A stretch of 63,452 bases of DNA, the filler included. It is 3 parts of 3 records of this genome, joined end to end, with 100 filler letters (N's around TTAATTAATTAA, not from the genome) between each part and the next. Parts side by side here need not be neighbours in the genome. Positions count along the whole stretch, not along the records: positions 1 to 22,313 come from SRR31156797_23904; 2 more parts are not named here. One strand, 5' to 3'. The position numbers were made by a program, and so were the translations under genes. Numbering within the stretch: the first letter of the stretch is position 1; each line of letters starts with the position of its first letter. Under the pieces are notes generated by a model. It saw nothing but the letters and a program-made list of their open reading frames with translations, was not told the origin of the DNA and searched no databases. Positions 155-21,040 of the stretch are shown in pieces.

Positions 155-516
155 ATTAACTCCTTGGCAGTAGATATAAAAAACTTGTTCCGATATGGTA
201 TCAGCCATTGCCTAAGATGTTACAAGTTTTTCTTTATCTGTAGCATTTATTTTTCACAGATAGCACTGCAATTACATAAATCCAATTCTTTCCTGACTGC
301 ATAGCAAGTCGGCCTTATAAAAAAAATCCTTCCTCTAATCTCAATATTATTGTAGTTGTAGTGGCTTATAGATTACAAATGGCTATTGAATACTGATTGA
401 GGATTTTAGTCTATCGTATTGCTTTGGCCGGCCTGCTCGGCCAAGGAGAAATCGCAAAAAGAAATGATATTCATGATAGAGCTCACAGACCGGATATATG
501 CGTTAGGGAGACAGGG

Positions 517-3865: not shown

Positions 3866-4714
3866 ATGGCTTTGCAAACACTCAAAAAAAAATTCACCAC
3901 CCTGTGGGATAAGCATACCATAGGCATTACTCTATTTTTGCTGATCCTTGCGTTTCTGATTGCATTTTTCTGGAACAGTATTGTGATTTCAATCTATCCC
4001 GGGCAGCAGGGGGTCCGGTGGTCAAGGTTCAACGGCACCCAGCTCAACGAGATAAACAGTGAGGGGCTGCATATCATCTGGCCCTGGGATATCATGTACA
4101 AATATAATACCCGGTTTCAAACAATAAACAGCACCCTGGAGATTCTAACCACCGAGGGGCTGACCATCACTGTGGATTACGCCTTCAGATTCTATCCCAC
4201 GAAGAAGGGGCTCCCCTATATTCACCAAAACCTGGGGGAAAACTATGCCCAAACCTTTTTGGAACCTGAAGTCAAGGCAGCCTCCATGTCAGTGATCGGA
4301 AATTACCCCCCCGAGCAACTCTACAGAATTTCCACCCTGGTGATCCAGGCATCCATCAAATATTATCTGAACAAACAATTCCTGGCCCGTAATATTGTTC
4401 TGGACGACTATCTGATTAAACGCATCATTCTTCCGGAACCGGTTGCCGACTCCATCGAACAGAAAATGGTTGCCGACCAGCTCAGCCAGGAATACGATTA
4501 TAAACTGTCCATTGAAACCAAGGAAAAGGAACGCAAGTCCATAGAAGCCGAAGGGATCAATTCCTTTGAAAAAATTTCAGGCATCCCCATACTCAAGTGG
4601 AAGGGCCTTGAGGTCACCCAGGAACTGGCCAAATCCCCCAACTCGAAAATTATAATCATGGGCAACGGGGACAAGGGGCTGCCCCTGCTGCTCAATACCG
4701 GCGGGAAACCATGA
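3866..4714 (+). CDS. SPFH/Band-7 (prohibitin-like) membrane protein
   Basis: One N-terminal TM, GQQGVRWSRF, EGLHIIWPW, C-terminal coiled-coil KEKERKSIEAEGI and LAKSPNSKIIIMG...GLPLLL. Confidence 0.85.
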   Translation: MALQTLKKKFTTLWDKHTIGITLFLLILAFLIAFFWNSIVISIYPGQQGVRWSRFNGTQLNEINSEGLHIIWPWDIMYKYNTRFQTINSTLEILTTEGLTITVDYAFRFYPTKKGLPYIHQNLGENYAQTFLEPEVKAASMSVIGNYPPEQLYRISTLVIQASIKYYLNKQFLARNIVLDDYLIKRIILPEPVADSIEQKMVADQLSQEYDYKLSIETKEKERKSIEAEGINSFEKISGIPILKWKGLEVTQELAKSPNSKIIIMGNGDKGLPLLLNTGGKP

Positions 4715-6949: not shown

Positions 6950-8236
6950 TTATAAAATTTGCGGTCCTTGCCTCCCACGCGTTGAGTCTGAGCAGGGCAT
7001 TGAGGGGCTGCCTGGGATGAGGGGGTCGGTTTGCAAGGGACTGTCAAACAGCTTGCGCTGATACCCCAGACACTGGTACCCATTTTCATTGATAATGGGA
7101 ATCATATCGGTGTCAATGTCAAGTTCCTTGCGTACCCAGTAGCAGATGGACATGGAAATGCCGTAGCTGCCTCCTGTCTGCTGGAATCGCTTGAACTGAT
7201 CTTGGCAGAAGTCGCGTTCCGGTGCCGTGCGCTGCCGTTGTTTTCGATGGTCCCGGTTTTCCGGTGCCAGATAGAGATTATATAGACGCCGGGTCTGATC
7301 CGGATCAAAATGTTCCAGCAGCTGCCCGATCCAGGCCAGGTTGGCCGGGGATACGGTCAGGAATTCGGGCTTGAAATTGACGATGCCGTTTCGGTGGAGC
7401 CTGTCAAAAAATGCAGTCATCACTTCGTCGGTCAGATATGAGGGGAAAATAGGCTGAACCAGGGCGGATTCGGACAGGATGCCAAGCTCCTGGCAAGCCC
7501 GTACCGCAGCCATCCGTTCTGATACCGGCGCCCCGAAAGGTTCAAGCAAAAGACGCAGGGAATCGGGCATGATGGAGATGCTGGTGTTGAACTGCATTTT
7601 TCCTTTGAGCTGTTCAAAAAGATCGATAATACGTACGCCGTCCCGGGCATACATCAGGTGTTTGATCCCGGCTTTGGAAGCGATGAAAAGCCTTGCTTTG
7701 GAGTCCGGATACCTTTCATAGTGGCGGATAAAGGTGTTCAGTATCCTGTGGGCAATGCCGGTCTGGAGGGTGGCCTCCTGAAGCGCCTCGGTCTTTGCCG
7801 AATAATAATAGTAGTGTTCCTCGTGCCGATGTTTTTCCAGAATAGGCGCCAGAAGCCGGTCGTAATTTTCATAGGCATTAAGGGGATGTTCATGGACCCC
7901 GTCGGTGACAAGACAGTAGAGACAACCCACATGACAGCCCTGCACCGGGCTGACTTCATAGGTAAGAGTGGGACAATGTGAGGTGTAGTTATGGATTTCC
8001 AGGTTAGAGCCAAGATCAATCATCCCCAGGTCCACCCGGGACCTGGGGATGGCGGTACGCGCCTTCCAGCGGTCCACGAATGAGCGGCATCCCGAGGTGA
8101 ACAGATCCATAGTTGCCTCATCCGGTGTAACACTTACCCCGAGGGCTTTAAGGTCTTTTCTTCCTATCATCCTGGGTGCAAACCCTTTTAAGTTGTAAAT
8201 ATCCGGCTGGTTATCGTAAATTGGTGTCAATTTCAT
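6950..8236 (-). CDS. Radical SAM enzyme, spore-photoproduct-lyase-like family
   Basis: The ORF track gives +, but the protein reads from the minus strand (CAT at 8234-8236 = ATG AAA TTG ACA; TTA at 6950-6952 = TAA). CxxxCxxC motif in SPVQGCHVGCLYC, LEP.GAP..ER.AA motif, extra Cys in SHCPT, SICYW and YQCLG. Co-oriented with the NRPS genes. Confidence 0.85.
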   Translation of the reverse strand: MKLTPIYDNQPDIYNLKGFAPRMIGRKDLKALGVSVTPDEATMDLFTSGCRSFVDRWKARTAIPRSRVDLGMIDLGSNLEIHNYTSHCPTLTYEVSPVQGCHVGCLYCLVTDGVHEHPLNAYENYDRLLAPILEKHRHEEHYYYYSAKTEALQEATLQTGIAHRILNTFIRHYERYPDSKARLFIASKAGIKHLMYARDGVRIIDLFEQLKGKMQFNTSISIMPDSLRLLLEPFGAPVSERMAAVRACQELGILSESALVQPIFPSYLTDEVMTAFFDRLHRNGIVNFKPEFLTVSPANLAWIGQLLEHFDPDQTRRLYNLYLAPENRDHRKQRQRTAPERDFCQDQFKRFQQTGGSYGISMSICYWVRKELDIDTDMIPIINENGYQCLGYQRKLFDSPLQTDPLIPGSPSMPCSDSTRGRQGPQIL

Positions 8237-8327
8237 CTATTTTCCTTTATTGGTGTTCTCTGACCGTTCAGGCCAAAGCAATGTCTTCCAGAATCTGTCA
8301 TATTGGGTTCTACCCATCTTTCCCAGA

Positions 8328-9881
8328 TTAGAGCCTCCTCAAGGTTACAGGGTCAGCCAAAGCTGCCCCATCCACCTTGCCGTTAGCGTTCAAAGGGAGG
8401 CTATCCAGCTCTTCCACACGGCCAGGGACCATTTGAACCGGCAGCGTATCCTGCAAATAATCCTTAATATTGTGAAAAAATGCATCGGTGTTTGCCTGTC
8501 CGCTGGACCTGACCACATAAGCGGCCAGGCCTGTTTCACCGTTCTCACGGATAAAGGGCCGGACATAGGCGTGCCGGACTTCCGGGTGGCTCAAAAGGGC
8601 TGTCTCTACCTCCACGGTTTCGATACGGCAACCCCTGATCTTGATCTGATGATCCTTCCTGCCCCTGAAATAGATCTGCCCGTTTTCGCCCAGTCTGCCC
8701 AGATCTCCGGTCCGGTACATACGGCTAAAGTCAGGGTCCTGTCTTTCCGGGTCGTACAAAGGATTGGCCGTAAAACCCTGGGCCGTCTTAAGGGACTGGT
8801 TCAGGTACCCGGCACAGACCTGGTCTCCGGAAATGCAAATTTCACCGGGCCTGCCCGGCGCACAAAGGGAAAGGTTTTCATCCAGTATCATCACTTTCAT
8901 GCCGGGCAGGGCCTGTCCCAGGGGATAGTCGGATAGTGGACGGGTAATCGGAAAGGCCGTGACATAGGCAGTGGTTTCGGTAGGGCCGTAAAGATTAAAT
9001 ACCTGATAACTTCTGGGGACAAATTCACGCAGTACCTCTCCGCCGGTGAGCAAGCGGCGTAAATTTGGATTGTCAAAGGTTTGCATATACGCCTCCCCCA
9101 CCCGGGTGGTCAAAAATGAGATTTCGATCTTATGGCGCATATAGTACCGGTGAAGGGCCACAAGAGAGATGCGCTCCGCCTCTCCCAGCAGGTAAACCCG
9201 GGCCCCTGCGACCAAAGGTGCATAAAGGTCCATCACAAAGGCGTCAAATGAAACTGTTGCAAAGGCTGCCACCCGGCTATCCACCGTGATATCGTGAAAT
9301 GCGTTATGCCGCTTGGCAAAACCCAGGACATTGGCATGGGTGAAAATCACCCCCTTAGGGTTGCCCGTGGTGCCGGAGGTATAGTAGACCAGCATGGGAC
9401 TGTCCCCGGACAACAGATTTTCCCGTTCCGCCTGGGTCTGCTGCAGGCATTCGGACTGCCGTGCGTCAATTTGCCACGTTTCCGATTGCCATAAATCAGG
9501 GGTCACCGCCTGGCAGGAGCAACCCGGGAACCGATCCGCCAGGTCCTGGTGGGTCAGAATGAAAGGAGCACCAGTATCTTTGAAAATATATCGAGCACGA
9601 TTCAGGGGGACGTCCGCGGCCAGTTGCGCGGCAGCGGCCCCGGCTTTTATCACCCCCAAGGTCCAGACAACGCAATCCAGCCCCCGGTTCATGATAACCG
9701 GGATGGCCATCCCCTTCCTGCAGCCGGCTTTGATAAGTTTTTCTGCCGCCAGGCTGCTGAAGATATCCAGCTCCCGGTAGGTCAATCTGTGTGCGGCCTC
9801 TGCCTTGTAGCAAAGCGCCGGAGTGTCGGGATATTGCCCGGCCAGGTAACCCAGAACTCGAGAATAGGTCGTTTGTTTCAT
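8328..9881 (-). CDS. Stand-alone NRPS adenylation domain
   Basis: LTYREL, YYTSGTTGNPKG, FDAF, NLYGPTE, GEICISG, YRTGDL, GRKDHQIKIRG.RIE, NGKVD. No T or C domain. Confidence 0.92.
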   Translation of the reverse strand: MKQTTYSRVLGYLAGQYPDTPALCYKAEAAHRLTYRELDIFSSLAAEKLIKAGCRKGMAIPVIMNRGLDCVVWTLGVIKAGAAAAQLAADVPLNRARYIFKDTGAPFILTHQDLADRFPGCSCQAVTPDLWQSETWQIDARQSECLQQTQAERENLLSGDSPMLVYYTSGTTGNPKGVIFTHANVLGFAKRHNAFHDITVDSRVAAFATVSFDAFVMDLYAPLVAGARVYLLGEAERISLVALHRYYMRHKIEISFLTTRVGEAYMQTFDNPNLRRLLTGGEVLREFVPRSYQVFNLYGPTETTAYVTAFPITRPLSDYPLGQALPGMKVMILDENLSLCAPGRPGEICISGDQVCAGYLNQSLKTAQGFTANPLYDPERQDPDFSRMYRTGDLGRLGENGQIYFRGRKDHQIKIRGCRIETVEVETALLSHPEVRHAYVRPFIRENGETGLAAYVVRSSGQANTDAFFHNIKDYLQDTLPVQMVPGRVEELDSLPLNANGKVDGAALADPVTLRRL

Positions 9882-9918
9882 ATGTTGTCACCCTGTCCTT
9901 TCACCGGTATGATTTGTT

Positions 9919-12900
9919 TCAACCCCCCTCATCCAGGGTCAGTGCCCGGTCCAAAACAGCCCCAGCCAATTCCCGGGTCATTTTGGGCCAGACAAATCCC
10001 AAATTCGCCAGCAAGGCGATAGTCCAGTCCATTTTTGCCTCACCACTAAAAATTTCACCCTCTGCCCTTTCCCTTTCCTGTTGCCCTATCCATGCCAGAA
10101 ATTGCCGGGCAGCTTCTGCCCGATCTTCCGGCTCGGCCTGGCCCATGGTGCTCAGTTGCGCTTTCAGGGCTGTAACCGGAAGTCGGCGAATGGCCTTTTC
10201 CTTGGGCAAAGCCATGGAAAGGATCTGGGACAGGGCAATCTGGTGGGGATTGTCGATGTGAAAGATCCCTGAGCCAAGGTCTGTCCGGCGGGCAAGCAGG
10301 CGGATGGCTCTGGCAGCCTGGTCCACAAAGGTCGGCCCCATCTTGCCGGTTCCATCCAATGCCATGCCCGTCTTTGCGATCATCCGGGCCAGACGCAGAA
10401 ACATGTTGCTTGGGGCAGCCTGGGGAAACCGATGATTTGCCGTATCAAGAATAAGGTTTCCCGTACGAAAAATCTGGCAATCCAGACCCCGGTCTCTGGC
10501 ACTAAGGACCCGTTTTTCAGCAGCCTGTTTTGTTCGGGAGTAGTGGTTCCGGGCAGGTGGGCCAACATCTTCGGTAAGTTCGGAAAAATCCGGCAGGTTA
10601 ACCGCACTCAGGGTGGAAATATGGACAAACCGGCAGTGTTCGTGCCGGGCGGCCAGTTCCAACAAATGTTCTGTGGCCGTCACATTGGCTGCGGCCAACA
10701 GTTTCGGGCTGCCGTAGTGGTTAACGGCGGCCGCCGAGTGAAGGATCATATCCAGGTGGGGAAGACATGTTTCCAAAAAGTGCACATCCCGGGAATGGCT
10801 CAGGTCCGCGGAAACAGGGAGAATCCGCTTTCGGTCCAGCATACGGTTAGCATCAGTCCTGCCGAAATAAAAGCAAAGGCTTGCATGCAGCCGATCCCAT
10901 GGATCTTTGGCTCCCCGCACCGGCACCAGGATTGTAGCCGCTGTCCGATCCCGATACTCTTTTAAGAGAAATGCACCGAGATAACCTGTAGCCCCGGTGA
11001 TCATAATTTTGTGCAGAGCAAGGGGACGCGCCTTTGGAAGACGGGGCGCAGTAGCCACAAGGTTCTGATAATACGGGTCCTCCCCGGTGCTTTGATAAGT
11101 TCCTGTATGCTTGCGTTCGCCTGTCTTTCCGCCGACGTAATCGGTACATTCCTTTTTTTGTGTACGGGCAGAGCCCTTGGCTACCGGTCTCATGCAGACT
11201 GCCAGGTCAGAAAGCTTTGGGGCTTTGAAAAAATCCTGAAGTTCAATAGAATGGGTGTCGGCCATGTGCCCCATGACATTGAGCAACTGGAGGGAATGCC
11301 CCCCAAGGTCGAAAAAATTATCTTCCCGGCAGATATCTGAAATGCCCAGAACCGCCTCCCAGGAACGGGCCAGGACCTTTTCCGTATCAGTCCGGGGCCG
11401 GGAGCCTGACGCGGTTTCAATAAGCGGTGGCGGCAATTGATCTGTGTCCAGCTTGCCGTGGGCGTTCAACGGCCACTGCCGTACCACTGTAAATGAAGAC
11501 GGCATCATATAAGCCGGCAAACGAGACGCCGCAAAAGCCTGAATCTGATCCTGGGTACAAGGGCTGTCCTGGAGCGTATAATAGGCATCCAGACGGCTGG
11601 GTTGACCGGTTCGATCATTTTGGACCATCACATGGGCACCCCGGACACCAGGCGCGGCCAGCAGCACCCGGCGGACCTCTTCAATTTCAATCCGATACCC
11701 CCGAATCTTGATCTGACCGTCGGCGCGTCCCAAAAACTCCAAATTTCCGTCCGGCAGCCAGCGAACCCGGTCACCGGTTCTGTAAATCCGCTCAAATCCA
11801 GGCCGGTCAGAAAAAGGATTATTCAGAAAAACCCGGTCTGTTTCCACGGGCATTCCCAGGTATCCTTCGGCTAGCTGGGGGCCCGAAAGACACAGTTCCC
11901 CCGCCACACCCACCGGACAAAGTTCCAAACCGGCGTTGACCACATAAACCTGAACATTGGCCAAAGGACGCCCGATGATACGGCTGGCACCAAAAAGCGT
12001 TGAGACGGGGCAGGTGGTAACCTGAATACAGGCCTCGGTAGGGCCGTAGGCGTTAATTACTTCAAAATCCACCGGCATAAGCCTTTGGGGTGATTCACCG
12101 CCCACAGCCATGGTGACCAGGGAGCGGGGAAATCCGCCGCGTCCACCGGCCTGACCAGTCGGCACTTTTCGGGCATGGTCAAAAAGCAGATCACCCACCC
12201 GGGTCGGCAGAGCTAAACGAGTGATGCCAAGGCGGTGGAGGGCCGCCATAAGGGCAGCACTGTCCACGAGCAGTTCTCCGGGCGCCATGTGTACGCAGGC
12301 ACCGCCGGCCCATGAGGGGAAGAGCAGCCACAAAGAAGGATCAAAGGAAAAAGCAATGGTATGAAGGACCTGGTCGTAGGGGCACAGCCCGAACCTGTCC
12401 AGGGTCCACGCGACCTGGTTGGCCAGCGCCCGGTGGGGTACAGCCGTTGCCTTGGGACGACCGGTAGTACCCGAGGTACAGATGACATAAGCCAGATCTC
12501 CGGGGGACGGCTCCGGTAGAAGCCCGGCGTCGCCGTCGGCTTCCAGGTTCCCAAAATTCTCTGTCAGGATAAGAGTCTGAAGGCAAATATCAGCGGGTGC
12601 CAGGCAGTCCGTAACCAAAGCGCAGGCATTGGTGAGTGCCAGCATGTCGTTGATCCGGGAAACAGGCCAGTCCGGTGCCAGGGGCAGATAGGCTGCCCCG
12701 GCCTTCATGATCCCTAAGGGTACGGCCGCCCCGGCAATGCTCCGGGACATGACAGCCCCGATCACGCAGCCCCTGCCCGCTCCCATGGCTATCAACCGAC
12801 GGGCCAGCTCATCGGTCCGGGTATCAAGCTGTCCGTAAGTCAGGCAGGTCGTCCCATGTACCAAAGCCGGCAGGTCTGTATATCGTCCGGCAGCTGCACA

Positions 12901-15900
12901 AAAGGCATGAACGGCAGTGGGAAAATCAATGGTCAGATCCCTGCCCCGGCCGAATTGTTCTGTAAGCTGCCGGACATCTTCAGCCGGGAGACGGGAAATT
13001 ATTCGGGCAGGCAGGTCCGGGCGGTTCAGCACCCGTTTGATTCTGGCCCGGAACTGTGTCCTGAGCCTGTCTGCCAGTGCCGGCGGTACAGCCCGGGGAT
13101 GGAATCGGAATTCGGCGGCAGAATCTACCCCGCCGTCCCGGAACAGAATCACCAGGTCGTATCCGTCACTGCCGTGGGTGGATAAGGGGCTGGGAAAATT
13201 TGCGTTATCCTCTCCGACGCGTTCAAAGGAAAAAAGGTGACGGGGCAAACGGCCGGCCATGGTGTCAGGCACGTCATACCTGGATTGAATCAAATCCATT
13301 TCATCCTGGACAGCCGAGGCAAAGCCTGTAAAAGATTGATCGCCGACCAGAGGACGGATCAACGGCAGGGTCCTGGCGCACATACCCACGAGGGATTCAA
13401 TCCCGGACAGAGGCGGCCTGCCTGCGGAAACAAACCCCAGCATCATTGACCCCTGTTCCGGACAGTCGGCATAGTGCTCCAGAACCAGCACCCAAATCGC
13501 CATGAAAAATGCCGCAGGCGTGATCCCTTCCTTTTGGGCTGCAGCCTTGCTGGCCATAAATTCATCAGAGGAAAGCAGCGCAAGGCTCCGGATCAGGTCT
13601 GAATCGGCAGCGTCTTCCTTGACAGTCTCCTGGGTAAGCAAGACGGGCAAATTCGCCGGCATGGCATGGGCGGGAAATTTTTCCTCCCAAAAATCCCCGG
13701 AGGCGTGATGGTCAAATATCGCGTCTTCGGATCTTTCATGACGGGGAATTCGGGCATGAATCCATTGGAGATATTCCCCAAAGGAGAGAACCGGCGCAGA
13801 CGACGCGGGTACGCTGCCGAAGAGTTCATCAAACAGGATACCCAGACTCCATCCGTCCAGGATCAGGTGGTGGTAATGAAACAGCATCTCCAGGTGCCCC
13901 TCCGCCATCCTGAAAAATTCCAGGCGGATCAGGGGGGGCTTAAATGGATCCAGCCCCGCTTTCATATCTGCCATCCGACCGATAAGTTGCGATCTGATAT
14001 CCTGGGGGCTCTCATCATGATAAACAAAAGGGATTTCCATCCGGGGGGGTACGACCACCCAGGATGCCCCATCCCCATCCAGGGCAAAACAGGACCGCAG
14101 GAGGTCGTGACGTTCCATGGCAGAGGCCAGGCGGCTACGGATCTCTTCCGGAGACGGCGTGGTGTTCGCAAGCTTGTAATGTCCGGTCACGGCATAGGCG
14201 TTTGGCCCGTATATTGCGGCCTGGGTGAGCAACATTCTCTGGGTAGGCGTGGGGGGAAGAACGATTGTCCCCTTACCCCAGACAGCTTCCATTGATCTGC
14301 AAAATCCGGCATCGGGAAGAGGCAAGGGCACTGATTTGTATTCAACCCCTTCGGCATCCGGAGGGGTTTTCGTATTCGGGGCCACCATCTTTGCCGCCAG
14401 CACCCTGAGGGTGGAACTGGTCATGATATCCCTGAGGGAAACCTGCCACCCCAGACTTTCCAGTCGGGCGGCCAGACGGATGGCGTTGATGGAGTCCCCG
14501 CCCGCTGCCAGAAAACTTTGCAGCACATTGGCATCTATTCCAGGCAGCAAGTCTGCCAGGACGGTCAAGAGAACATTTTCGGCCGGTGTATCAGGGGAAG
14601 CGACCGGAAAGTCCCCGGCCCGGCCTTCCGGTTCCGGGAGTGCGCGAAGATCTATCTTGCCTCCGGGAGTCAACGGCAGAGCATCTATCCGAATGATCGC
14701 GGGGAGCATATGGGACGGTAGTTTCTCAGAAAGAAAAGCCATGATCTCCTCTTTCCGGAAACTATGGGAGGAGGAGACCACCCATGCAGCCAGCCGCTTT
14801 TCACCTCCGGCTGTCGGCGCTTGCAAAGCTGCCACAGCCCTGTCGATCCAGGGATGGGACTGGAGCACGCTTTCAATTTCCCCCAGCTCCACCCGGAATC
14901 CCCTTACTTTAACCTGATTGTCCATACGGCCCAGGAAGATCAGGTCACCCCGTTCATCGTCCGGTGCTGTCTGCCAGTAGGCCAGGTCACCGGTGCGGTA
15001 AAGCCGTCTGTGCTCAGACTCGTCACGGTCCGGATTAAAAAAAGGATTATCTATGAATTTTTCAGCGGTCAACGGATCGTCTCCCAGATATCCCCGGGCC
15101 ACCTGAACACCTGAAAAACACAGTTCTCCCGGTACGCCCAAGGGCACGAGCCGACCCATGCTGTCAATAATAAAAGCCCGCATCCCGGGAAGGGGTCTGC
15201 CGATGGGGATGGGCGTCAAGTTCTGTGACAAAGTATATGACGTACAGGTCACCGTGCATTCAGTGGGACCGTACTCGTTGACAACAGTGTAAGGCACCCG
15301 GGTATAACGGCCAATGGCGTCCCCGCCTGTGGCCAAAAAACGCAAGGCAGACGGGGCATTGCTGCCTGGGAACCTGTCCATAAACTCCTCGGCCATGGCA
15401 ACGGGCAGGTCCATGTGGGTGATACGTTCCCTAATCACGTAATCCCTTATCCGATGCAGGGTATGCTGGCTCCCTTCCCCCAGAATATGAACGGTCCCGC
15501 CGCTGAACAGGGCAGAATAGAAACCCCAGATGGCCACGTCATAGGCGAACTCGGTCTGGATAGCGGCGCTCATATCCGGCCCCCAGTGGTACCGGTCCAT
15601 GGCCCAGGTGCAAAACGCCACGGCATTTCGGTGTTCCACCACCACGCCCTTGGGGCGCCCTGAGGTACCGGAGGTCATGATGATATAGGCCGGATCCTCT
15701 GGACAGGCAGATCGGTAGGTCTTGTTTTTTCTCCCGGCAGCCGGTGGATGCCCAAGCCGATCAAAATTTTCTTCATCCAGCACCAGATCCGGATCTGTAT
15801 CTGCCAAGACCTGTCGGACCCGGTCAAACCGCCATTCCGGGGAAAGGGGCAGATAGGCGGCTCCCGCCTGGAGTACGGCCAAGGCCGCAATGGCGATCCG

Positions 15901-17442
15901 GTGGGATCGATTAAGCGTAAAGGCCACCAGATTGCCCGGCCCAACACCCTGGTCGGCCAGAGCATCAGCCAGGGCATCCACACGGCTTGCCAGTTCACCA
16001 TAGGTCATGCGGGTACTTTCCCAAACCAGGGCGTTTTTCTCTGAATGGGCTGCAGCCGCATTCCGCCAGAGCGTTGCCAGGGTGTGACCGGCGGCCCCAG
16101 GCAACGGCGGATCATAGGACAGCAGCAGAGCCGTCTCTTCATCCGGAAGAAAAGCAATATCTTTCAAACCGATATCCGGGTTCCGAACGACAGCGGCCAG
16201 GATGTTGCAAAAATGGACGGCCGCGCGTGTCACGGCCCGGGTCGAGTATTTTCGAGTATCGTAAGAAAAGCAGGCCTGAACCGTTTTTCCCAGTTCGAAA
16301 CCGGCAGTAAAGCCTGCCACAGCCTCCCCGTATCCCCGGACCCACTCGGGACCGTCTGCCGGGGGGGCAGGGTCAGCCACAAAGAGAAGATCAGCATAGC
16401 CGGGTATCATTTTGTTCAACACGGTGGGGGAGGCAAATCCGTGACGCTCATCCGCTGATACCTGGGTGTTCCATTCCCTGATCCAGGCGGAAAAGGCCTT
16501 TTCTTCGGGTAGATCCAACCGGACCGGAATGGTATTGACACACATACCGACCATTCCAATCACCCCGGGCACCGTTCCCATACGGCCGTTGATAACATGA
16601 CCGAACCCAACCCGTCCCCCGTTGTACCGGCAAAGCAGCAGTGCCCACAAAGCCTGAAGCAGGCGTCCGGGTGAGATGCGCAGCTGCCGGGCCAGACCAT
16701 ACAGACGGACGCTTTCCGGCAATGAAAACCGGTGGTGTGCGCAGTCCCAAGCCATATTGTCTGTTTCTTGATCTGAAATTGGGCCTGTCACCTGGCCGGG
16801 GAACCGGCTCGCCTCAACGCCGGCAAGCCGGGCCTGCCAATAGGCAAAATCTGACTGAATGTCCCGCTTTGCCAGAAACCGGAGATACCGGCTAAAGGGC
16901 ACCCCTTTGTCTCCGGTCGCCTCTTGGGCCAGAAGCTGCTTCATCAGAATGGCCAGGCTCCAGCCATCCAGGACGGCGTGGTGGAAGATGATTCCCACAT
17001 CCCGGATGCCTGTACCCGGCCCGAACCTGTCAAACAGGACCAGTCGACACAGGGGACCGGTAAAAGGGTCTATCCCTCTTGTGCGAACCGCTTCAAGATA
17101 GTCGCCGATGGCCAGGTCCTGATCTTCGGTACTGCGACCGGAGAGATTTTGGCAGCTGAATCCGGGAAGATGGCCTTTAGGAAAGGCCTGGGTCAGGTTC
17201 CCGTCATCATCGAGGAAAAGCCGGGTACGCAGGACCGGATGGATCTGGGCAAGCCCATGCCAGCGCCGGCGAAGTTCATCAGGATCACAGAGACGGGGAA
17301 GCCTGAAATGAATCAGTGAGAGGTAGCGGGGAGCAGACTTTTGCCCGGATGCCGAAGACTGTGTCGACGCAATAGAGTCAAAGACCATTCCCTCCTGCAT
17401 GGGGGTCAGGGGAAACCGACCGGGAATATCAGGCAAATTCAT
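9919..17442 (-). CDS. NRPS, C-A-T-C-A-T-R (terminal thioester reductase)
   Basis: C: HHAVLDG and HHLILDG. A: TSGTSGRPKG/NEYGPTE and TSGTTGRPKA/NAYGPTE. T: GGDSI (Ser 14491-14493) and GGHSL (Ser 11293-11295). R: ITGATGYLG, HSAA.VNH, YSRTK. Likely start ATG 17442 overlaps the upstream NRPS stop. Confidence 0.95.
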   Translation of the reverse strand: MNLPDIPGRFPLTPMQEGMVFDSIASTQSSASGQKSAPRYLSLIHFRLPRLCDPDELRRRWHGLAQIHPVLRTRLFLDDDGNLTQAFPKGHLPGFSCQNLSGRSTEDQDLAIGDYLEAVRTRGIDPFTGPLCRLVLFDRFGPGTGIRDVGIIFHHAVLDGWSLAILMKQLLAQEATGDKGVPFSRYLRFLAKRDIQSDFAYWQARLAGVEASRFPGQVTGPISDQETDNMAWDCAHHRFSLPESVRLYGLARQLRISPGRLLQALWALLLCRYNGGRVGFGHVINGRMGTVPGVIGMVGMCVNTIPVRLDLPEEKAFSAWIREWNTQVSADERHGFASPTVLNKMIPGYADLLFVADPAPPADGPEWVRGYGEAVAGFTAGFELGKTVQACFSYDTRKYSTRAVTRAAVHFCNILAAVVRNPDIGLKDIAFLPDEETALLLSYDPPLPGAAGHTLATLWRNAAAAHSEKNALVWESTRMTYGELASRVDALADALADQGVGPGNLVAFTLNRSHRIAIAALAVLQAGAAYLPLSPEWRFDRVRQVLADTDPDLVLDEENFDRLGHPPAAGRKNKTYRSACPEDPAYIIMTSGTSGRPKGVVVEHRNAVAFCTWAMDRYHWGPDMSAAIQTEFAYDVAIWGFYSALFSGGTVHILGEGSQHTLHRIRDYVIRERITHMDLPVAMAEEFMDRFPGSNAPSALRFLATGGDAIGRYTRVPYTVVNEYGPTECTVTCTSYTLSQNLTPIPIGRPLPGMRAFIIDSMGRLVPLGVPGELCFSGVQVARGYLGDDPLTAEKFIDNPFFNPDRDESEHRRLYRTGDLAYWQTAPDDERGDLIFLGRMDNQVKVRGFRVELGEIESVLQSHPWIDRAVAALQAPTAGGEKRLAAWVVSSSHSFRKEEIMAFLSEKLPSHMLPAIIRIDALPLTPGGKIDLRALPEPEGRAGDFPVASPDTPAENVLLTVLADLLPGIDANVLQSFLAAGGDSINAIRLAARLESLGWQVSLRDIMTSSTLRVLAAKMVAPNTKTPPDAEGVEYKSVPLPLPDAGFCRSMEAVWGKGTIVLPPTPTQRMLLTQAAIYGPNAYAVTGHYKLANTTPSPEEIRSRLASAMERHDLLRSCFALDGDGASWVVVPPRMEIPFVYHDESPQDIRSQLIGRMADMKAGLDPFKPPLIRLEFFRMAEGHLEMLFHYHHLILDGWSLGILFDELFGSVPASSAPVLSFGEYLQWIHARIPRHERSEDAIFDHHASGDFWEEKFPAHAMPANLPVLLTQETVKEDAADSDLIRSLALLSSDEFMASKAAAQKEGITPAAFFMAIWVLVLEHYADCPEQGSMMLGFVSAGRPPLSGIESLVGMCARTLPLIRPLVGDQSFTGFASAVQDEMDLIQSRYDVPDTMAGRLPRHLFSFERVGEDNANFPSPLSTHGSDGYDLVILFRDGGVDSAAEFRFHPRAVPPALADRLRTQFRARIKRVLNRPDLPARIISRLPAEDVRQLTEQFGRGRDLTIDFPTAVHAFCAAAGRYTDLPALVHGTTCLTYGQLDTRTDELARRLIAMGAGRGCVIGAVMSRSIAGAAVPLGIMKAGAAYLPLAPDWPVSRINDMLALTNACALVTDCLAPADICLQTLILTENFGNLEADGDAGLLPEPSPGDLAYVICTSGTTGRPKATAVPHRALANQVAWTLDRFGLCPYDQVLHTIAFSFDPSLWLLFPSWAGGACVHMAPGELLVDSAALMAALHRLGITRLALPTRVGDLLFDHARKVPTGQAGGRGGFPRSLVTMAVGGESPQRLMPVDFEVINAYGPTEACIQVTTCPVSTLFGASRIIGRPLANVQVYVVNAGLELCPVGVAGELCLSGPQLAEGYLGMPVETDRVFLNNPFSDRPGFERIYRTGDRVRWLPDGNLEFLGRADGQIKIRGYRIEIEEVRRVLLAAPGVRGAHVMVQNDRTGQPSRLDAYYTLQDSPCTQDQIQAFAASRLPAYMMPSSFTVVRQWPLNAHGKLDTDQLPPPLIETASGSRPRTDTEKVLARSWEAVLGISDICREDNFFDLGGHSLQLLNVMGHMADTHSIELQDFFKAPKLSDLAVCMRPVAKGSARTQKKECTDYVGGKTGERKHTGTYQSTGEDPYYQNLVATAPRLPKARPLALHKIMITGATGYLGAFLLKEYRDRTAATILVPVRGAKDPWDRLHASLCFYFGRTDANRMLDRKRILPVSADLSHSRDVHFLETCLPHLDMILHSAAAVNHYGSPKLLAAANVTATEHLLELAARHEHCRFVHISTLSAVNLPDFSELTEDVGPPARNHYSRTKQAAEKRVLSARDRGLDCQIFRTGNLILDTANHRFPQAAPSNMFLRLARMIAKTGMALDGTGKMGPTFVDQAARAIRLLARRTDLGSGIFHIDNPHQIALSQILSMALPKEKAIRRLPVTALKAQLSTMGQAEPEDRAEAARQFLAWIGQQERERAEGEIFSGEAKMDWTIALLANLGFVWPKMTRELAGAVLDRALTLDEGG

Positions 17443-20400
17443 CGTCCTCGTCGTCAAAAGCGTCTGCAGGTTCTATCATTTGCATCAACTCACCCAGCCG
17501 GGCCTGCTCATAAATCGTGGTGGCCGGCAGGTACCACCCTGTTTTGAAAAGTTCCGCCTCCAGGCGCATGGCGGTAATGGAATCGCCCCCCAGCTCAAAA
17601 AAATCGTCATCCGGCTCAGACGTGGAAACGTTCAGAACCTCCTGCCACGCAAAAATCAAGGCCTGTGCCGCCATATCATTCCCGGTCAAATCCGCATCAG
17701 AGGAACGCTGCGGGATGTGCGCAGTGTCATCCTCCCCTTCCGGTTTTAATTCATGCAGAATTTGGCCTGAAGGCCAGGGTAGCTGGCCCAGAGGCCGGCC
17801 TGGCTCGGCGCAGGCTGTCCGGATAACCGTTGCCATTGCATCTGCCCAGCCCTTCATCAGATCGGGTTGGAACAAGTCCCTGGCATAAATCAATTCCAGA
17901 AAAATCTGATCCCGGCCCTCCCGGATCTCAAGGATCATATCGAACATGGCCGTGGGACGGTTGACCCCTGGAACAATCCTGGCGCAGACCTCTTGGTCCG
18001 CCGATTTTAACACCGGGAAAGACCGGGGCTGGGGAAGCCGGTTGATCATCACGTCGAACAGGGGACTTCGCCCTGGAATCCGGGAGGGCTTGACCAGCTG
18101 AACAATCCGTTCAAGCGAGCAGGTCTGGTGTTCCCAGGCATCCAGAAAGCCTTCCCGGACCTCCCGAAGCCAGTCTGAAAACGGCTGGGCCCCGTCCTGT
18201 ACCGGTCGAAGACGCAAGGGCAGTGTTCTAACAAACATCCCTTTGCAAAACTGGAGTGCCGGATGATCCCTTCCAGCAAAAGGCACGCCCATCACGATGT
18301 CGTCAAACCCTTGGGTAACGGCTGCTTGGCGAGAAACAAATGCGGCCCAAACCGCCAGCATAATTTGAAATACGGAGACCCTGTAAATCTCGGCCAGTTT
18401 TGCCAAAGCGTCCCGGTCCTCTTTTCCCAGGACCACCCGGGCAACGGCACTGCCCCCTGTCAGGGCAGAGGGTCTGGGGGAAACAGCGCCTGAAAGATCC
18501 AAGGGCGGCGGGAGGTCGTTCAACTGTTCCTGCCAGAAGTTTTCAGATATTTTAAGTTCCCGCCTGTCTTGCCGATTACGGTCCCAAAGGACATAATCGG
18601 TCATTAGAACAGTCTGACCGCCTCCTGGATCGTGAATTTCTCCAGCCATGTACAAATCCCACCAGGCATCCATCAAAAGACGGGACGAAGCCGCATCCAC
18701 GAGGATATGATGGGTTGTCAGCCCCAAAAAACTGCAACGGGAATTGATTTCGATACGGACCACGTAAAAGAGAGGCGATCGGGACAGATCAATGGCCGGC
18801 CGGGCAAGACTTAGTTTCTCCCACAGCAGGCGTGCCTGTTCCGGATCCGACGCATGATGACACTCAAAATCATAGGTCACGGTATCGTCGATCACCCAGG
18901 CCGGCTCCCCGTCCGTCTCAATAAACCTGGAGCGCAGGAGAGGCTCCTGCTCAACCAGCCTGGCAAACACTTCTTCCAGCCGATGGCCGTCAACATCCCC
19001 TTCCACCATCATGCAGGTATCTATTTCGTAAGCCCGTGGATCTTTGCCCAGACGCCACACCAGGTACATCTGCCGCATGGGCATGGTCAGGGGATACCGG
19101 TCCCGGGGTGGAGATGCGGGAATGCGTGATACGTCGGCCGCATCCCCGGCCAGATCAATCATTTCAAGAACTGCCGACGGCCAGGGTCTGCGAAAAATTT
19201 CTCCGTATGATAAATCAACTGAAAACTCGCTGCGCAGCATAAGCTGAAGCCCCGCAAGTTTCAAGGAATCCCCCCCCAGGGCAAAAAAATTGTCCAAAGG
19301 GTTGACACTGGAAACCAGTAGTTTCTTTGCAAAAATTTCACACAGGCGGCCCAGGCGTAGATTATGATCGGGCACTGAATCCTTTAGATCAACAATACCC
19401 GCAGACGCCATGTTTTGCGCCGGAAATTGTGGAAGCCGGGAGCGCTCAATCTTACCGTGTACCCCTCTTGGCAAGGCCTGCATTATTTTAATCCGGACAG
19501 GCACCATGTACTCGGGCACAAGGGCGGTTAGCTGGGATTTCAGGACCTGGGAGTCAAGTTTGTCTCCTGCGGCCCAGGCGTAAAGGGCCATCCCGTGATC
19601 GGCCGTTTTTTGAGCAACGACCACACATTCACGTACGCCGTCACAGCTATTCAATTTCACTTCCACATGACCCGGATCCACACGCATCCCGCGAATTTTT
19701 ACGACAAAATCACTGCGCCCGCAATGGACCAGCAGTCCGTTTTCATCCAGGCGAGCCTGGTCCCCGGACAGATAAAGGCGGTTGTAGCCGGAAGCATCCA
19801 TGCCGTCAAATGAACTCGAATCTGTCAGAGGGGGCGTATACACTGAAGGTTGGACATGGGTAAAGGGATTGGTGATGAAACACTCCTGTGTCCTCTCCGG
19901 CATCCCCAGGTACCCCCTGGCCAAGGACGGGGAACTTACCGCCATTGTGCCCATCTCTCCCGGACGGATCATATTATTTTGATCATCCAGGAGATAGATC
20001 CGGGAAGGACCAAATGCCCTGCCCAGGGGAATATTGGATTCATATGCCTTTTGGATGGATAAAAATGTGACGGAACCACCGTTTTCAGCCATGCCCAGGG
20101 AGTACAAAATTTCGTAAGGGGTATGGGAACAAGAGCGCAGGGGACCGCCGGCCACCCGGACATACTTCAGGGACTGTCCGCTGCAGTTGTGGCTGAACAT
20201 CTCAGCCATATCCGGAGAAAGAAAGACGTATCGAATTTCATGCCTCTCAAAATAGGTCTCCAGGGCCAGGGGATCGCGTCGCACCGTTTCACTCAAAATA
20301 TGCAGGGTCATGCCGGAAGCCAGGGGATAAAGCAGTTCCCAGGGCGCAGCAATAAACCCCAAAGGCGCAAAAGCTGCGGTGTGTGATCCGGGGGGGAGAT

Positions 20401-21040
20401 CCATGTATGATTTTTGCCAGGCCAACATGGAAGAGATGGCCCGGTGCTCAAGAACGGCACCCTTAGGCTGCCCGGTGGATCCGGAGGTAAATATGGCGGT
20501 GGCAATATCCCGTGGGTTTGGAATAAACCGATCCGATGCTTCAAAAGACTCTGACACCGCTTTTTTGTGAAGCCCCGGATCGGTCAGGTCGATGCAGGGG
20601 ATGTTCTCCAGGCCTTGATTCCCGGGCTCAGAAGTCAATATCGCCGTCACGAGGGTTGTTTGGGCAATCTGACGAATGTAGGCCTCGGGAGCGTCACCGG
20701 GCACGCAGATATAAGCCCCGCCTGCCCGGAGCACCGAAAGAATGCCCACGGCCGCAGCAACGGTTCTACCTGTCAATACCATAATCCAGGGGGACACATC
20801 TGCCTTTTCCGGATAACCAATGTCGTAATTTTCAGGACAGGAACTTTCACCCAGACCCAAAGCCCTGAGGCGACCGGCGACCAAGCGCGAAAGCCGGTCT
20901 AACTCCTTAAAGGTTAGCTGCTGCCGGTCATCCCTGACCGCAGGCCGATCTGGATAAGTTGCCGCACATTTGTAAAACTGTTCCAGAAATGAAATTCCGG
21001 ACAGAAACTCGAAGCTCACTTCGTCAACACAGGAAGTCAT
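17429..21040 (-). CDS. NRPS, A-T-C-T (atypical starter A domain; second module lacks A)
   Basis: A: LTFKEL, IFTSGSTGQPKG, degenerate FIAAPW / SLGMAE / YLSGDQ, HGKIER. T: GGDSL (19265-19267). C: HHILVDA. T: GGDSI (17579-17581). Acidic C-terminal tail DAFDDEDDEFA. Confidence 0.93.
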   Translation of the reverse strand: MTSCVDEVSFEFLSGISFLEQFYKCAATYPDRPAVRDDRQQLTFKELDRLSRLVAGRLRALGLGESSCPENYDIGYPEKADVSPWIMVLTGRTVAAAVGILSVLRAGGAYICVPGDAPEAYIRQIAQTTLVTAILTSEPGNQGLENIPCIDLTDPGLHKKAVSESFEASDRFIPNPRDIATAIFTSGSTGQPKGAVLEHRAISSMLAWQKSYMDLPPGSHTAAFAPLGFIAAPWELLYPLASGMTLHILSETVRRDPLALETYFERHEIRYVFLSPDMAEMFSHNCSGQSLKYVRVAGGPLRSCSHTPYEILYSLGMAENGGSVTFLSIQKAYESNIPLGRAFGPSRIYLLDDQNNMIRPGEMGTMAVSSPSLARGYLGMPERTQECFITNPFTHVQPSVYTPPLTDSSSFDGMDASGYNRLYLSGDQARLDENGLLVHCGRSDFVVKIRGMRVDPGHVEVKLNSCDGVRECVVVAQKTADHGMALYAWAAGDKLDSQVLKSQLTALVPEYMVPVRIKIMQALPRGVHGKIERSRLPQFPAQNMASAGIVDLKDSVPDHNLRLGRLCEIFAKKLLVSSVNPLDNFFALGGDSLKLAGLQLMLRSEFSVDLSYGEIFRRPWPSAVLEMIDLAGDAADVSRIPASPPRDRYPLTMPMRQMYLVWRLGKDPRAYEIDTCMMVEGDVDGHRLEEVFARLVEQEPLLRSRFIETDGEPAWVIDDTVTYDFECHHASDPEQARLLWEKLSLARPAIDLSRSPLFYVVRIEINSRCSFLGLTTHHILVDAASSRLLMDAWWDLYMAGEIHDPGGGQTVLMTDYVLWDRNRQDRRELKISENFWQEQLNDLPPPLDLSGAVSPRPSALTGGSAVARVVLGKEDRDALAKLAEIYRVSVFQIMLAVWAAFVSRQAAVTQGFDDIVMGVPFAGRDHPALQFCKGMFVRTLPLRLRPVQDGAQPFSDWLREVREGFLDAWEHQTCSLERIVQLVKPSRIPGRSPLFDVMINRLPQPRSFPVLKSADQEVCARIVPGVNRPTAMFDMILEIREGRDQIFLELIYARDLFQPDLMKGWADAMATVIRTACAEPGRPLGQLPWPSGQILHELKPEGEDDTAHIPQRSSDADLTGNDMAAQALIFAWQEVLNVSTSEPDDDFFELGGDSITAMRLEAELFKTGWYLPATTIYEQARLGELMQMIEPADAFDDEDDEFA

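Follow-up and report, generated by a model that had tools for sequence, protein, structure and literature searches.

Condensation domains of the DCL clade directly behind GGDSI carrier domains, without epimerisation domains, in a synthetase cluster of a sulfate-reducing bacterium

Results

Organisation of the cluster

The window (the whole stretch of DNA analysed, 63,452 nucleotides, filler included) carries an NRPS cluster from a sulfate-reducing bacterium (Table 1). Two synthetase genes, the start of the second overlapping the end of the first, are accompanied by genes for a stand-alone A domain and a radical SAM protein. The second module of P0001 lacks an A domain, and the catalytic motifs of the assembly line are all intact. 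A-domain codes were read out after calibration on CepB and StaC; that of A1 suggests that its substrate is probably an acid without an alpha-amino group. No racemase gene was present among the 20 neighbouring ORFs scanned in and beside the cluster. Among the papers listed by literature searches (2 of 3 and 12 of 29 matches), judged by titles and the starts of abstracts, none was relevant to the cluster or to an NRPS-linked spore-photoproduct-lyase-like enzyme.

Table 1. Genes and domains of the cluster (positions along the window).
Feature	Position	Strand	Characteristics	Basis
NRPS gene 1, P0001 (1203 aa)	17429..21040	-	A1-T1-C1-T2	translation, Pfam
A1	19415..20998	-	code IAWFRASGSK (no Asp235); A5 motif GMAENGG, not YGPTE
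T1	19154..19354	-	LGGDSL motif
C1	17750..19123	-	HHILVDA; L-clade condensation domain	PDB ranking, trees
T2	17471..17671	-	LGGDSI motif, Ser codon 17579-17581; final P0001 domain
NRPS gene 2, P0002 (2512 aa)	9919..17457	-	C2-A2-T3-C3-A3-T4-R	translation, Pfam
C2	16117..17439	-	HHAVLDGWS; C5 motif MVGMCVNTIP; Gly at GrsB1-386 position; E-less subclade of D clade
A2	14623..16092	-	code DVWDAGEVTK
T3	14383..14583	-	AGGDSI motif, Ser codon 14491-14493
C3	12958..14292	-	HHLILDGWS; C5 motif LVGMCARTLP; Gly at GrsB1-386 position; C2 paralogue
A3	11413..12927	-	code DPWAAGAIQK
T4	11188..11385	-	LGGHSL motif
Terminal reductase R	10237..11010	-	NAD_binding_4 / Epimerase-fold SDR; reductive release	Pfam
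Stand-alone A domain, P0004 (517 aa)	8328..9881	-	code DAMFLGLAYK
Radical SAM protein P0003	6950..8236	-	CHVGCLYC cluster motif; spore-photoproduct-lyase-like fold

The synthetase has no epimerisation domain

No E domain was found in the window, either with Pfam or in a six-frame scan with our own C/E, A and T profiles, which returned only the genes listed. The three C-family domains scored as C and not as E (E/C profile bits 108/241, 74/357 and 77/305). A regular expression for E domains, [ED]GHGR[EDQ], missed 64 of 178 and was replaced by the E-versus-C profile score. The T2-C2 junction crosses the protein boundary with no E domain between. An earlier note on this DNA had held that no E domain could be accommodated, and this was borne out: P0001 ends 49 residues after Ser1154 of T2, and about 67-79 residues separate Ser989 of T3 from the start of C3, leaving no room for a domain of about 450 aa. 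In the genome of Desulfobacter vibrioformis (G001), the relative used for whole-genome searches, no E domain that could act in trans was detected, all nine PF00668 matches being of C type. The same layout without E recurs in 11 orthologues, the most distant at 52% identity, as well as in the more distant homologous cluster L014 and in P0248.

GGDSI carriers precede condensation domains of the D clade

As reported in the earlier note, T2 and T3 read GGDSI at the Ser codons given in Table 1, and T4 reads GGHSL. T2 (FFELGGDSITAM, active Ser1154) and T3 (LAAGGDSINAI, active Ser989) are of T(E) type by this core motif, yet neither precedes an E domain. All 11 T3 orthologues, down to 52% identity, have GGDSI, and T2 has it both in the window and in D. 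vibrioformis; the L014 cluster has GGTSL in T2 and GGNSI in T3. The motif pattern is thus conserved and not fortuitous, although in T3 its conservation could also reflect a partner other than C3.

Among the sampled carriers, GGDSI was found in 171 of the 178 that precede an E domain, in 38/44 of those that precede a D-clade C domain without E, and in 8/27 of those that precede an L-clade C domain. The association with the clade of the downstream C domain (Fisher p 2e-6) is indicative only, the sequences being related. Because ranking whole proteins by their summed score favoured giant synthetases, scoring was done on single domains: the 200 scoring best against a C2+C3 profile included 23 that directly follow a T domain, 22 behind GGDSI and one behind GGNSI. 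Covariation of the carrier motif with the downstream C clade has already been published (PMC10212144). GGDSI and a D-clade C domain thus co-vary as one interface, and the two marks are not independent witnesses.

C2 and C3 belong to an E-less subclade of the D clade

The strings that had been cited for a DCL-like character of C2 and C3 (PLTPMQEGM, HHAVLDGWS, HHLILDGWS, FGHVINGR...GMVGMCVNTIPV and VSAGRP..GIESLVG) and for an LCL-like character of C1 (DIVMGVPFAGR, RSPLFDV) were all found, and the assignment itself was upheld by trees and PDB ranking alike. When C2 was compared with PDB sequences by phmmer, BacC E-C, McyB, TycB1 and SrfA-C came first (102-73 bits, versus 31 for Txo1 and 24 for TycC6). 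The same set led with C3 (81-54 bits versus 42-38), while TycC6, Txo2 and Txo1 led with C1 (144-119 bits). C2 and C3 were placed in the clade that holds every post-E C domain (FastTree SH-like 0.96; IQ-TREE UFBoot 95); C1 grouped with C domains found behind GGHSL carriers and never behind E (UFBoot 95). These subtype calls derive from context-labelled trees and PDB ranking, not from curated antiSMASH, NaPDoS or CDD models; the protein sample was drawn by its similarity to C2 and C3, the post-E and after-T labels come from home-made profiles, and 98 N-terminal domains in set 1 and 103 in set 2 had no known upstream partner.

C2 and C3 form sister clades (SH-like 0.98, UFBoot 100), with long branches and only 26% identity between them. 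Their clade also takes in the two C domains of P0248 plus 10 domains from P0250, P0281 and P0337; it has no post-E member (SH-like 0.983 with 34 tips; UFBoot 94 with 18 tips) and is nested (UFBoot 98) next to a group with 10 post-E domains. P0281 and P0337 have a canonical E domain at their C-terminal end only. In other parts of the tree, after-T domains behind GGDSI pair closely, as sisters, with post-E domains. A single old loss of E suffices for C2 and C3, because they are sister paralogues of one E-less clade.

The E-less subclade lacks the gate acid and has a cysteine in motif C5

The gate position, E386 of GrsB1, corresponds to E382 of SrfAC and was mapped through an alignment with 2VSQ. 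It is Glu or Asp in 121 of 136 post-E domains, compared with none of the 34 members of the E-less clade, in which it is Gly or Ser; it is Gly in all 22 C2 and C3 orthologues. The E386L change made GrsB1, TycB1 and SrfAC use L donors in place of D donors (PMC10949931). According to the same source, the gate mutation was tested in these three Firmicute DCL domains only and just 47% of MIBiG DCL domains have Glu or Asp at the gate, so the missing acid does not prove that L donors are used.

In motif C5, 32 of the 34 clade members have Cys, at a position which is Phe, Tyr, Leu or Met in 135/136 post-E domains and is Cys in 0/43 L-type domains. This residue could serve extra chemistry. Dual C/E domains are defined by HH[I/L]xxxxGD, a second His motif close to the N-terminus (PMC1894796), and their upstream carriers have LGGHSI (PMC10212144). 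Neither C2 and C3 nor any other clade member has the His motif; the regular expression matched 0 of 636 domains, a count that comes without a positive control.

The radical SAM protein

The best fold match of P0003 was spore photoproduct lyase (4K9R/4FHF; TM 0.46/0.56, 15-16% identity), with which, as with the PA0069/Rv2578c 'DNA repair photolyase' group, it shares a CxxxCxxC motif near residue 100. It differs from both by this low identity, by gene neighbourhood and by NCBIfam scores far under the cut-offs (33.7 bits versus 360). NCBIfam and Pfam gave only weak PA0069/Rv2578c matches and generic Radical_SAM ones, and within these family libraries, the level at which kinship with peptide epimerases of PoyD/YydG type was assessed, no epimerase family was matched.

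All homologous clusters seen have the P0003 gene beside the synthetase (L001, L012, L014, and P0132 with P0013, the last two on contigs of the same reported length, 34562). No other gene of the cluster is as well conserved (90% versus 79-83%). Among 201 genomes of the order, only the cluster-bearing one was found to have it. Any NRPS was near only 8/80 related loci (6/44 among those with at least 3 kb upstream). Most relatives are in glycan loci, adjoining WbqC-like, DegT, GT2 and sugar-transferase genes. Where another NRPS lies beside a relative, it is a single C-A-T-TE module in which the carrier reads GGDSL and the C domain HHxxxDA, with neither a DCL-like C domain nor GGDSI.

Discussion

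A possible DCL-derived subtype acting without epimerisation

That C2 and C3 represent an E-independent, DCL-derived C subtype that acts on unflipped donors is a reading to which we give an even chance. Most likely, the marks reflect the ancestry of a distinct enzyme sub-lineage and not a hidden flipping chemistry. This sub-lineage would have arisen inside the DCL radiation, would have lost its upstream E domain once, long ago, and would since have acted directly behind a carrier domain. GGDSI would then be a carrier motif co-evolving with D-clade donor sites, and we propose that its presence in T2 and T3 reflects the C domains they serve, C2 and C3, and not epimerisation.

In such an assembly line, T1 would be loaded by A1 with an acid lacking an alpha-amino group, as the A1 code suggests, and T2 in trans by P0004, since there are four A domains for four T domains and synteny is conserved. 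C1 would join the two units, after which T2 would dock on C2 across the protein boundary; C2 and C3 would lengthen the chain by the substrates of A2 and A3, and the reductase would release an aldehyde or an alcohol. No epimerisation step is implied in this scheme. The donors at C2 and C3 most likely keep the configuration in which they were loaded, which is probably L, and P0003 would have some other role, in precursor supply or another modification.

The earlier note had read the marks as pointing either to lost E domains or to D-configuration supplied in another way. The step from the marks to D-configured residues is not supported, because the marks are one co-varying interface, the gate Glu or Asp is missing, and L-donor precedents are in print: glycopeptide synthetases have DCL-clade C domains behind T without E (PMC1894796, Rausch 2007), and ACV synthetase and fungal DCL domains are D-clade C domains without E (PMC10212144, He 2023), in both cases with L donors. 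Like these, the present domains are of DCL type and condense straight after a carrier, with no E domain upstream. They differ from the fungal systems, which have LGGHSL carriers (PMC10212144), by GGDSI, and from the glycopeptide C domains, which occupy another part of the D clade and have no sister relation to C2 and C3. With the canonical T(E)-E-DCL systems (TycA/TycB1, SrfA-B/SrfA-C, BacC E-C) they share the GGDSI carrier, D-clade membership and the best PDB matches; unlike them, they have no E domain, Gly for Glu or Asp at GrsB1-386, Cys for Phe in C5, and an N-terminal motif without the His of LFH.

Alternative explanations

Direct loading is one alternative: P0004 and A2 would be selective for D-isomers from racemases encoded elsewhere in the genome, with C2 and C3 as true DCL domains, as in systems, microcystin among them, that load D-amino acids directly. 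Such loading would yield DCL domains without E, in keeping with the D-clade position of C2 and C3, and an unusual substrate would naturally enter through a stand-alone A domain. The codes DAMFLGLAYK and DVWDAGEVTK appear unlike small-residue pockets, which presumably counts against loading of the D-Ala type. The route is a published one, for example for D-Ala in cyclosporin (SimB) and fusaricidin (PMC3897469, PMC8949500), and the cases in print are said to concern D-Ala only (PMC3897469). Given also the lack of a racemase gene in the neighbourhood and the invariant Gly at the gate of the orthologues, we regard direct loading as unlikely.

It is equally doubtful that the subclade is an unrecognised kind of dual C/E domain, which would flip the carrier-bound residue before condensation, perhaps through the C5 Cys. 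In favour of this, the clade lies among DCL domains but has no E, its members always follow T(E)-type carriers, its specific Cys lies near the active-site strand, and P0281 and P0337 have their E domain at the C-terminal end only. Arthrofactin-type dual C/E domains are likewise of the D clade and work without a separate E domain. However, the absence of HH[I/L]xxxxGD (PMC1894796) and the GGDSI carriers in place of LGGHSI (PMC10212144) count against dual C/E activity, which the earlier note had suggested, and a dual domain must condense a D donor, for which the gate acid is missing. A broader proposal, to which we also give a low probability, is that the 34-member clade is a new functional subtype of DCL descent, defined by GGDSI carriers, a position never behind E, an active-site-proximal Cys and the lack of the gate acid; it would combine condensation with epimerisation or another extra donor step, by a mechanism unlike that of arthrofactin-type domains, and may act with the radical SAM enzyme in Desulfobacter clusters.

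It appears very unlikely that P0003 works in trans on the residues bound to T2 and T3, whether as an epimerase or by other C-H chemistry, with GGDSI as its docking mark. In its favour, spore photoproduct lyase abstracts a hydrogen atom and then returns it; the invariable presence of the gene beside the synthetase, its high conservation and its restriction to the cluster-bearing genome of the order point the same way, and GGDSI carriers have been reported as partners of trans-acting hydroxylases (PMC8161544, PMC11472818). The suggestion of trans epimerisation nevertheless gained no positive support: the enzyme is spore-photoproduct-lyase-like, with modest TM values and no epimerase family match, NRPS genes are rare near its relatives, which are mostly in glycan loci, their other NRPS partners have neither mark, and L014 retains the enzyme with GGTSL and GGNSI carriers.

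Least probable of all is a recent deletion of two E domains that left a relic, possibly impaired line: the close sister pairs of after-T and post-E domains elsewhere in the tree are what recent E loss predicts, but the layout is conserved among homologues, C2 and C3 are highly diverged within the E-less clade and the catalytic motifs are intact. The two losses invoked in the earlier note are not needed.

Significance

Genome-mining tools infer a D residue from 'DCL' and 'GGDSI'. In the present case, and at 44 plus 22 further E-less junctions, both marks travel as one interface; since a whole subclade has them without an E domain and without the D-selectivity residue, predictions of D residues from these marks alone are unsafe. 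A separate lead is the conserved radical SAM enzyme that accompanies an NRPS in strict anaerobes. The marks of the subclade itself, Cys in C5 and Gly or Ser at the gate, offer a simple handle for its recognition and a defined target for work on the control of donor stereochemistry.

Epimerisation-type marks without an E domain

Translation and motif positions confirmed every string and coordinate on which the earlier note had based its proposal that GGDSI carriers and DCL-like condensation (C) domains, here without an epimerisation (E) domain, reflect either E loss or D-configuration acquired by other means. The carrier (T) motifs are GGDSL in T1, GGDSI in T2 and T3, and GGHSL in T4, and there is indeed no space for an E domain at the T2/C2 or T3/C3 junction. 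When the entire 63 kb was scanned in six frames with home-made profiles for C/E, A and T, no further NRPS domain and no E domain came up. The same four genes are present in Desulfobacter vibrioformis DSM 8776 (79-90% identity); this draft genome has no record of a stand-alone E domain, its PF00668 matches being C-type (9/9). The order C-A-T-C-A-T-R is common to nine further P0002 orthologues (52-85% identity), and GGDSI at T3 and GGHSL at T4 were found in 11/11 P0002 orthologues.

In the distant homologous cluster L014 (1867-3069, 4702-5814), the N-terminal lobes of C2 and C3 are both shorter by about 35 residues, the carriers are GGTSL and GGNSI, and the catalytic HHxxxDG is retained.

Gene cluster and adenylation-domain codes

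The four co-directional genes lie on the minus strand within 6950-21040 (see table). The start of P0002 overlaps the stop of P0001 (17429-17457; ATG at 17442, 14 bases ahead of the stop), and the acidic C-terminus of P0001 reads DDEDDEFA. These features hint at translational coupling and at a short docking tail behind T2. T2 has no A domain in cis, and as there are four A domains for four T domains, it is presumably loaded by P0004. The cluster may extend to about position 400, since in the homologous clusters L012, L013, L014 and L015 the radical SAM gene has Band_7 and ABC genes of identical Pfam composition beside it.

Features of the window, with the specificity codes of the adenylation domains
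Feature	Position	Strand	Content	Code
NRPS gene 1 (P0001)	17429-21040	-	A1-T1-C1-T2	
A1	19415-20998	-	Asp235 absent (Ile)	IAWFRASGSK
NRPS gene 2 (P0002)	9919-17457	-	C2-A2-T3-C3-A3-T4-reductase	
A2				DVWDAGEVTK
A3				DPWAAGAIQK
P0004	8328-9881	-	stand-alone adenylation domain	DAMFLGLAYK
P0003	6950-8236	-	radical SAM protein, motif CHVGCLYC	
ABC transporter gene	397-2205	+		
ABC transporter gene	2174-3820	+		
Band_7/SPFH gene	3866-4714	+		
Open reading frame	34846-39381	+	1511 aa, no Pfam match at E<=1e-5	

CepB and StaC served to calibrate the alignment used for reading the codes; the codes that they gave (DIFHLGLLCK, DALHLGLLCK, DAFHLGLLCK and DASTLGAICK) agree with Hpg and Tyr-type codes. 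A1 has GMAENGG where the YGPTE core motif is expected, a feature kept in D. vibrioformis, as is the absence of Asp235; this suggests that its substrate is a starter acid without an alpha-amino group and not an amino acid. No A code in the cluster looks like that for Gly, which makes chirality at T2 and T3 a genuine question.

C2 and C3 belong with DCL domains

The reading of C2 and C3 as DCL-like and of C1 as LCL-like is borne out by two independent lines of evidence, phmmer against PDB and context-labelled trees. C2 matched the BacC E-C didomain (102 bits), McyB (91), TycB1 (79) and SrfA-C (78-73), versus 31 and 24 bits for the L-type domains of Txo1 and TycC6. C3 matched BacC (81), PvdL (65), McyB (58), TycB1 (54) and SrfA-C (54 bits), versus 42-38 bits for Txo1, LgrA and TycC6; C1 had TycC6 (144), Txo2 (127) and Txo1 (119 bits) on top. 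BacC and McyB accept D donors. The same is reported of TycB1 and SrfA-C (PMC10949931).

For the tree, 357 C and 178 E domains from 124 synthetases were used, and each C domain was labelled by the domain that precedes it. A single clade (the D clade; 294 tips, SH-like 0.96) took in all 163 post-E domains together with C2 and C3, and C1 was placed in the other, which has no post-E member. An IQ-TREE analysis of 65 domains (LG+G4, 1000 UFBoot) gave 95 for the D clade and 95 for the L clade with C1.

The GGDSI motif follows the C clade

With orthologues excluded from these 124 proteins, GGDSI was present in 171/178 carriers ahead of E, in 38/44 ahead of an E-less D-clade C domain, and in 8/27 ahead of an L-clade C domain, where GGHSL accounted for 19. 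Junctions of the type T(GGDSI)-C(D-clade) without E are common, with 44 in this first set alone. A second, independent set (146 proteins, 750 C domains) was obtained by searching 1.84 billion representatives with a profile; among the best 200 matches to the C2+C3 profile, 23 follow a T domain, 22 behind GGDSI and one behind GGNSI. He et al. (2023; PMC10212144) associate DCL with LGGDSI, LCL with LGGHSL and dual domains with LGGHSI; their conclusion is that the carrier motif follows the adjacent C subtype. Such coupling would be expected because the carrier of a T-E-C unit has to reach E as well as the DCL donor site. Partnership of GGDSI carriers with trans-acting Asp hydroxylases is also reported (PMC8161544, PMC11472818). 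Since GGDSI co-varies with the C clade and is reported to serve hydroxylase partners, it is no proof of epimerisation.

Five synthetases with Nitrospira or Nitrospirales names (P0103, P0065, P0121, P0115, P0096) combine E-less T(GGDSI)-C(D-clade) junctions with TauD (PF02668), which fits the reported link of GGDSI carriers with beta-hydroxylation.

DCL-type domains behind a T domain are described in known systems. In glycopeptide synthetases every C domain lies in the DCL subtree, L-donor ones included, a "functional shift" in the wording of Rausch et al. (2007; PMC1894796); for ACV synthetase and nearly all DCL domains of fungi, the upstream neighbour is a T and not an E (He et al., 2023; PMC10212144).

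An E-less subclade without the acidic gate residue

Outside their own orthologues, C2 and C3 are mutually closest (26% identity) and form sister clades (SH-like 0.98, UFBoot 100), so a single duplication accounts for the doubled pattern. Under broader sampling C2 and C3 group with both C domains of P0248, from an L014-type cluster, and with 10 domains of P0250 (C-A-T-C-A-T-C-A-T-C), P0281 and P0337 (both C-A-T x4 with a terminal E). This joint clade (34 tips, SH-like 0.983, or 18 tips, UFBoot 94) includes no post-E domain and is nested (UFBoot 98) beside a group with 10 post-E domains. Rather than the loss of two E domains proposed earlier, a single old loss, after which the T-C unit spread, would be the simplest history. 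Elsewhere in the tree, lone after-T GGDSI domains adjoin post-E sisters, which looks like recent, independent E losses.

According to Peng et al. (2024; PMC10949931), donor stereopreference is set by GrsB1 Glu386 (TycB1 Glu385, SrfAC Glu382), and Glu386 to Leu turns D preference to L. SrfAC Glu382 was placed on our alignment via the printed 2VSQ alignment. This gate column is Glu/Asp in 121/136 post-E domains versus 0/34 members of the joint clade; all 22 C2/C3 orthologues have Gly, and the other 12 members have G (4), S (3), A (2), N (2) or V (1). Gly is also the commonest residue of L-type domains in this column (9/43). Among the domains of the first set, a fraction of 0.71 of the post-E and 0.31 of the L-clade ones had an acidic residue there. 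Motif C5 has Cys in 32/34 clade members, versus Phe/Tyr/Leu/Met in 135/136 post-E and Phe/Tyr/Leu in 43/43 L-type domains.

Hidden D chemistry finds no support in the only residue known to gate it, which in C2 and C3 is Gly instead of Glu/Asp. The motif HH[I/L]xxxxGD given for dual domains (PMC1894796) was not found in C2, C3 or the clade members. Another published route is direct loading of D-Ala with a racemase in trans (PMC3897469, PMC8949500).

The radical SAM protein

Epimerisation in trans by P0003, as the earlier note had envisaged, is improbable, and nothing points to such a role. Several findings indicate that P0003 is part of the gene cluster. Of the cluster genes it is the one best conserved in D. 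vibrioformis, with counterparts in loci L001, L012 and L014, and also P0132 with P0013 (contigs equally long, 34562); it occurs in one of 201 genomes of the order, namely the genome with the cluster. Pfam and NCBIfam gave weak Radical_SAM and PA0069/Rv2578c matches only, and the nearest fold to its AlphaFold model (pLDDT 84) is that of spore photoproduct lyase (TM 0.46/0.56). Relatives with 48-77% identity were found at 80 metagenome loci, 8 of them with NRPS domains nearby. NRPS domains accompany 3/3 loci that combine at least 60% identity with a one-sided flank of 3 kb or more, and 6/44 that have 3 kb or more upstream. Five of the 8 are single C-A-T-TE modules or have the ending of one, with GGDSL/GGNSL carriers and HHxxxDA C domains, and a family III CoA-transferase follows them; such a module is a second, simpler NRPS context of this enzyme type. 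Most other loci have WbqC-like (38), GT2 (16), DegT (15) or sugar-transferase (11) genes, and glycan loci are the main setting of the family. As the other NRPS partners are HHxxxDA modules, the NRPS link is independent of DCL-like domains. In our reading, P0003 would make or modify a building block.

At L070 (5752-12358), L075, L086, L091 and L022, the radical SAM homologue directly follows a single-module C-A-T-TE NRPS of about 1300-1400 aa; in L070 and L022 the homologue is itself followed by a family III CoA-transferase. At 57/80 loci (L023-L090), a protein of about 400-500 aa without Pfam match is encoded just downstream on the same strand (e.g. L064:8352-9839), usually alongside WbqC-like, DegT, GT2 and sugar-transferase genes, a conserved pair in glycan loci.

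In conclusion, the E-type marks are real and conserved, but hidden D chemistry is neither required by them nor backed by the gate residue. From sequence comparison, C2 and C3 most likely represent an E-independent, DCL-derived condensation subtype with cognate GGDSI carriers, which would take carrier-bound donors as loaded.
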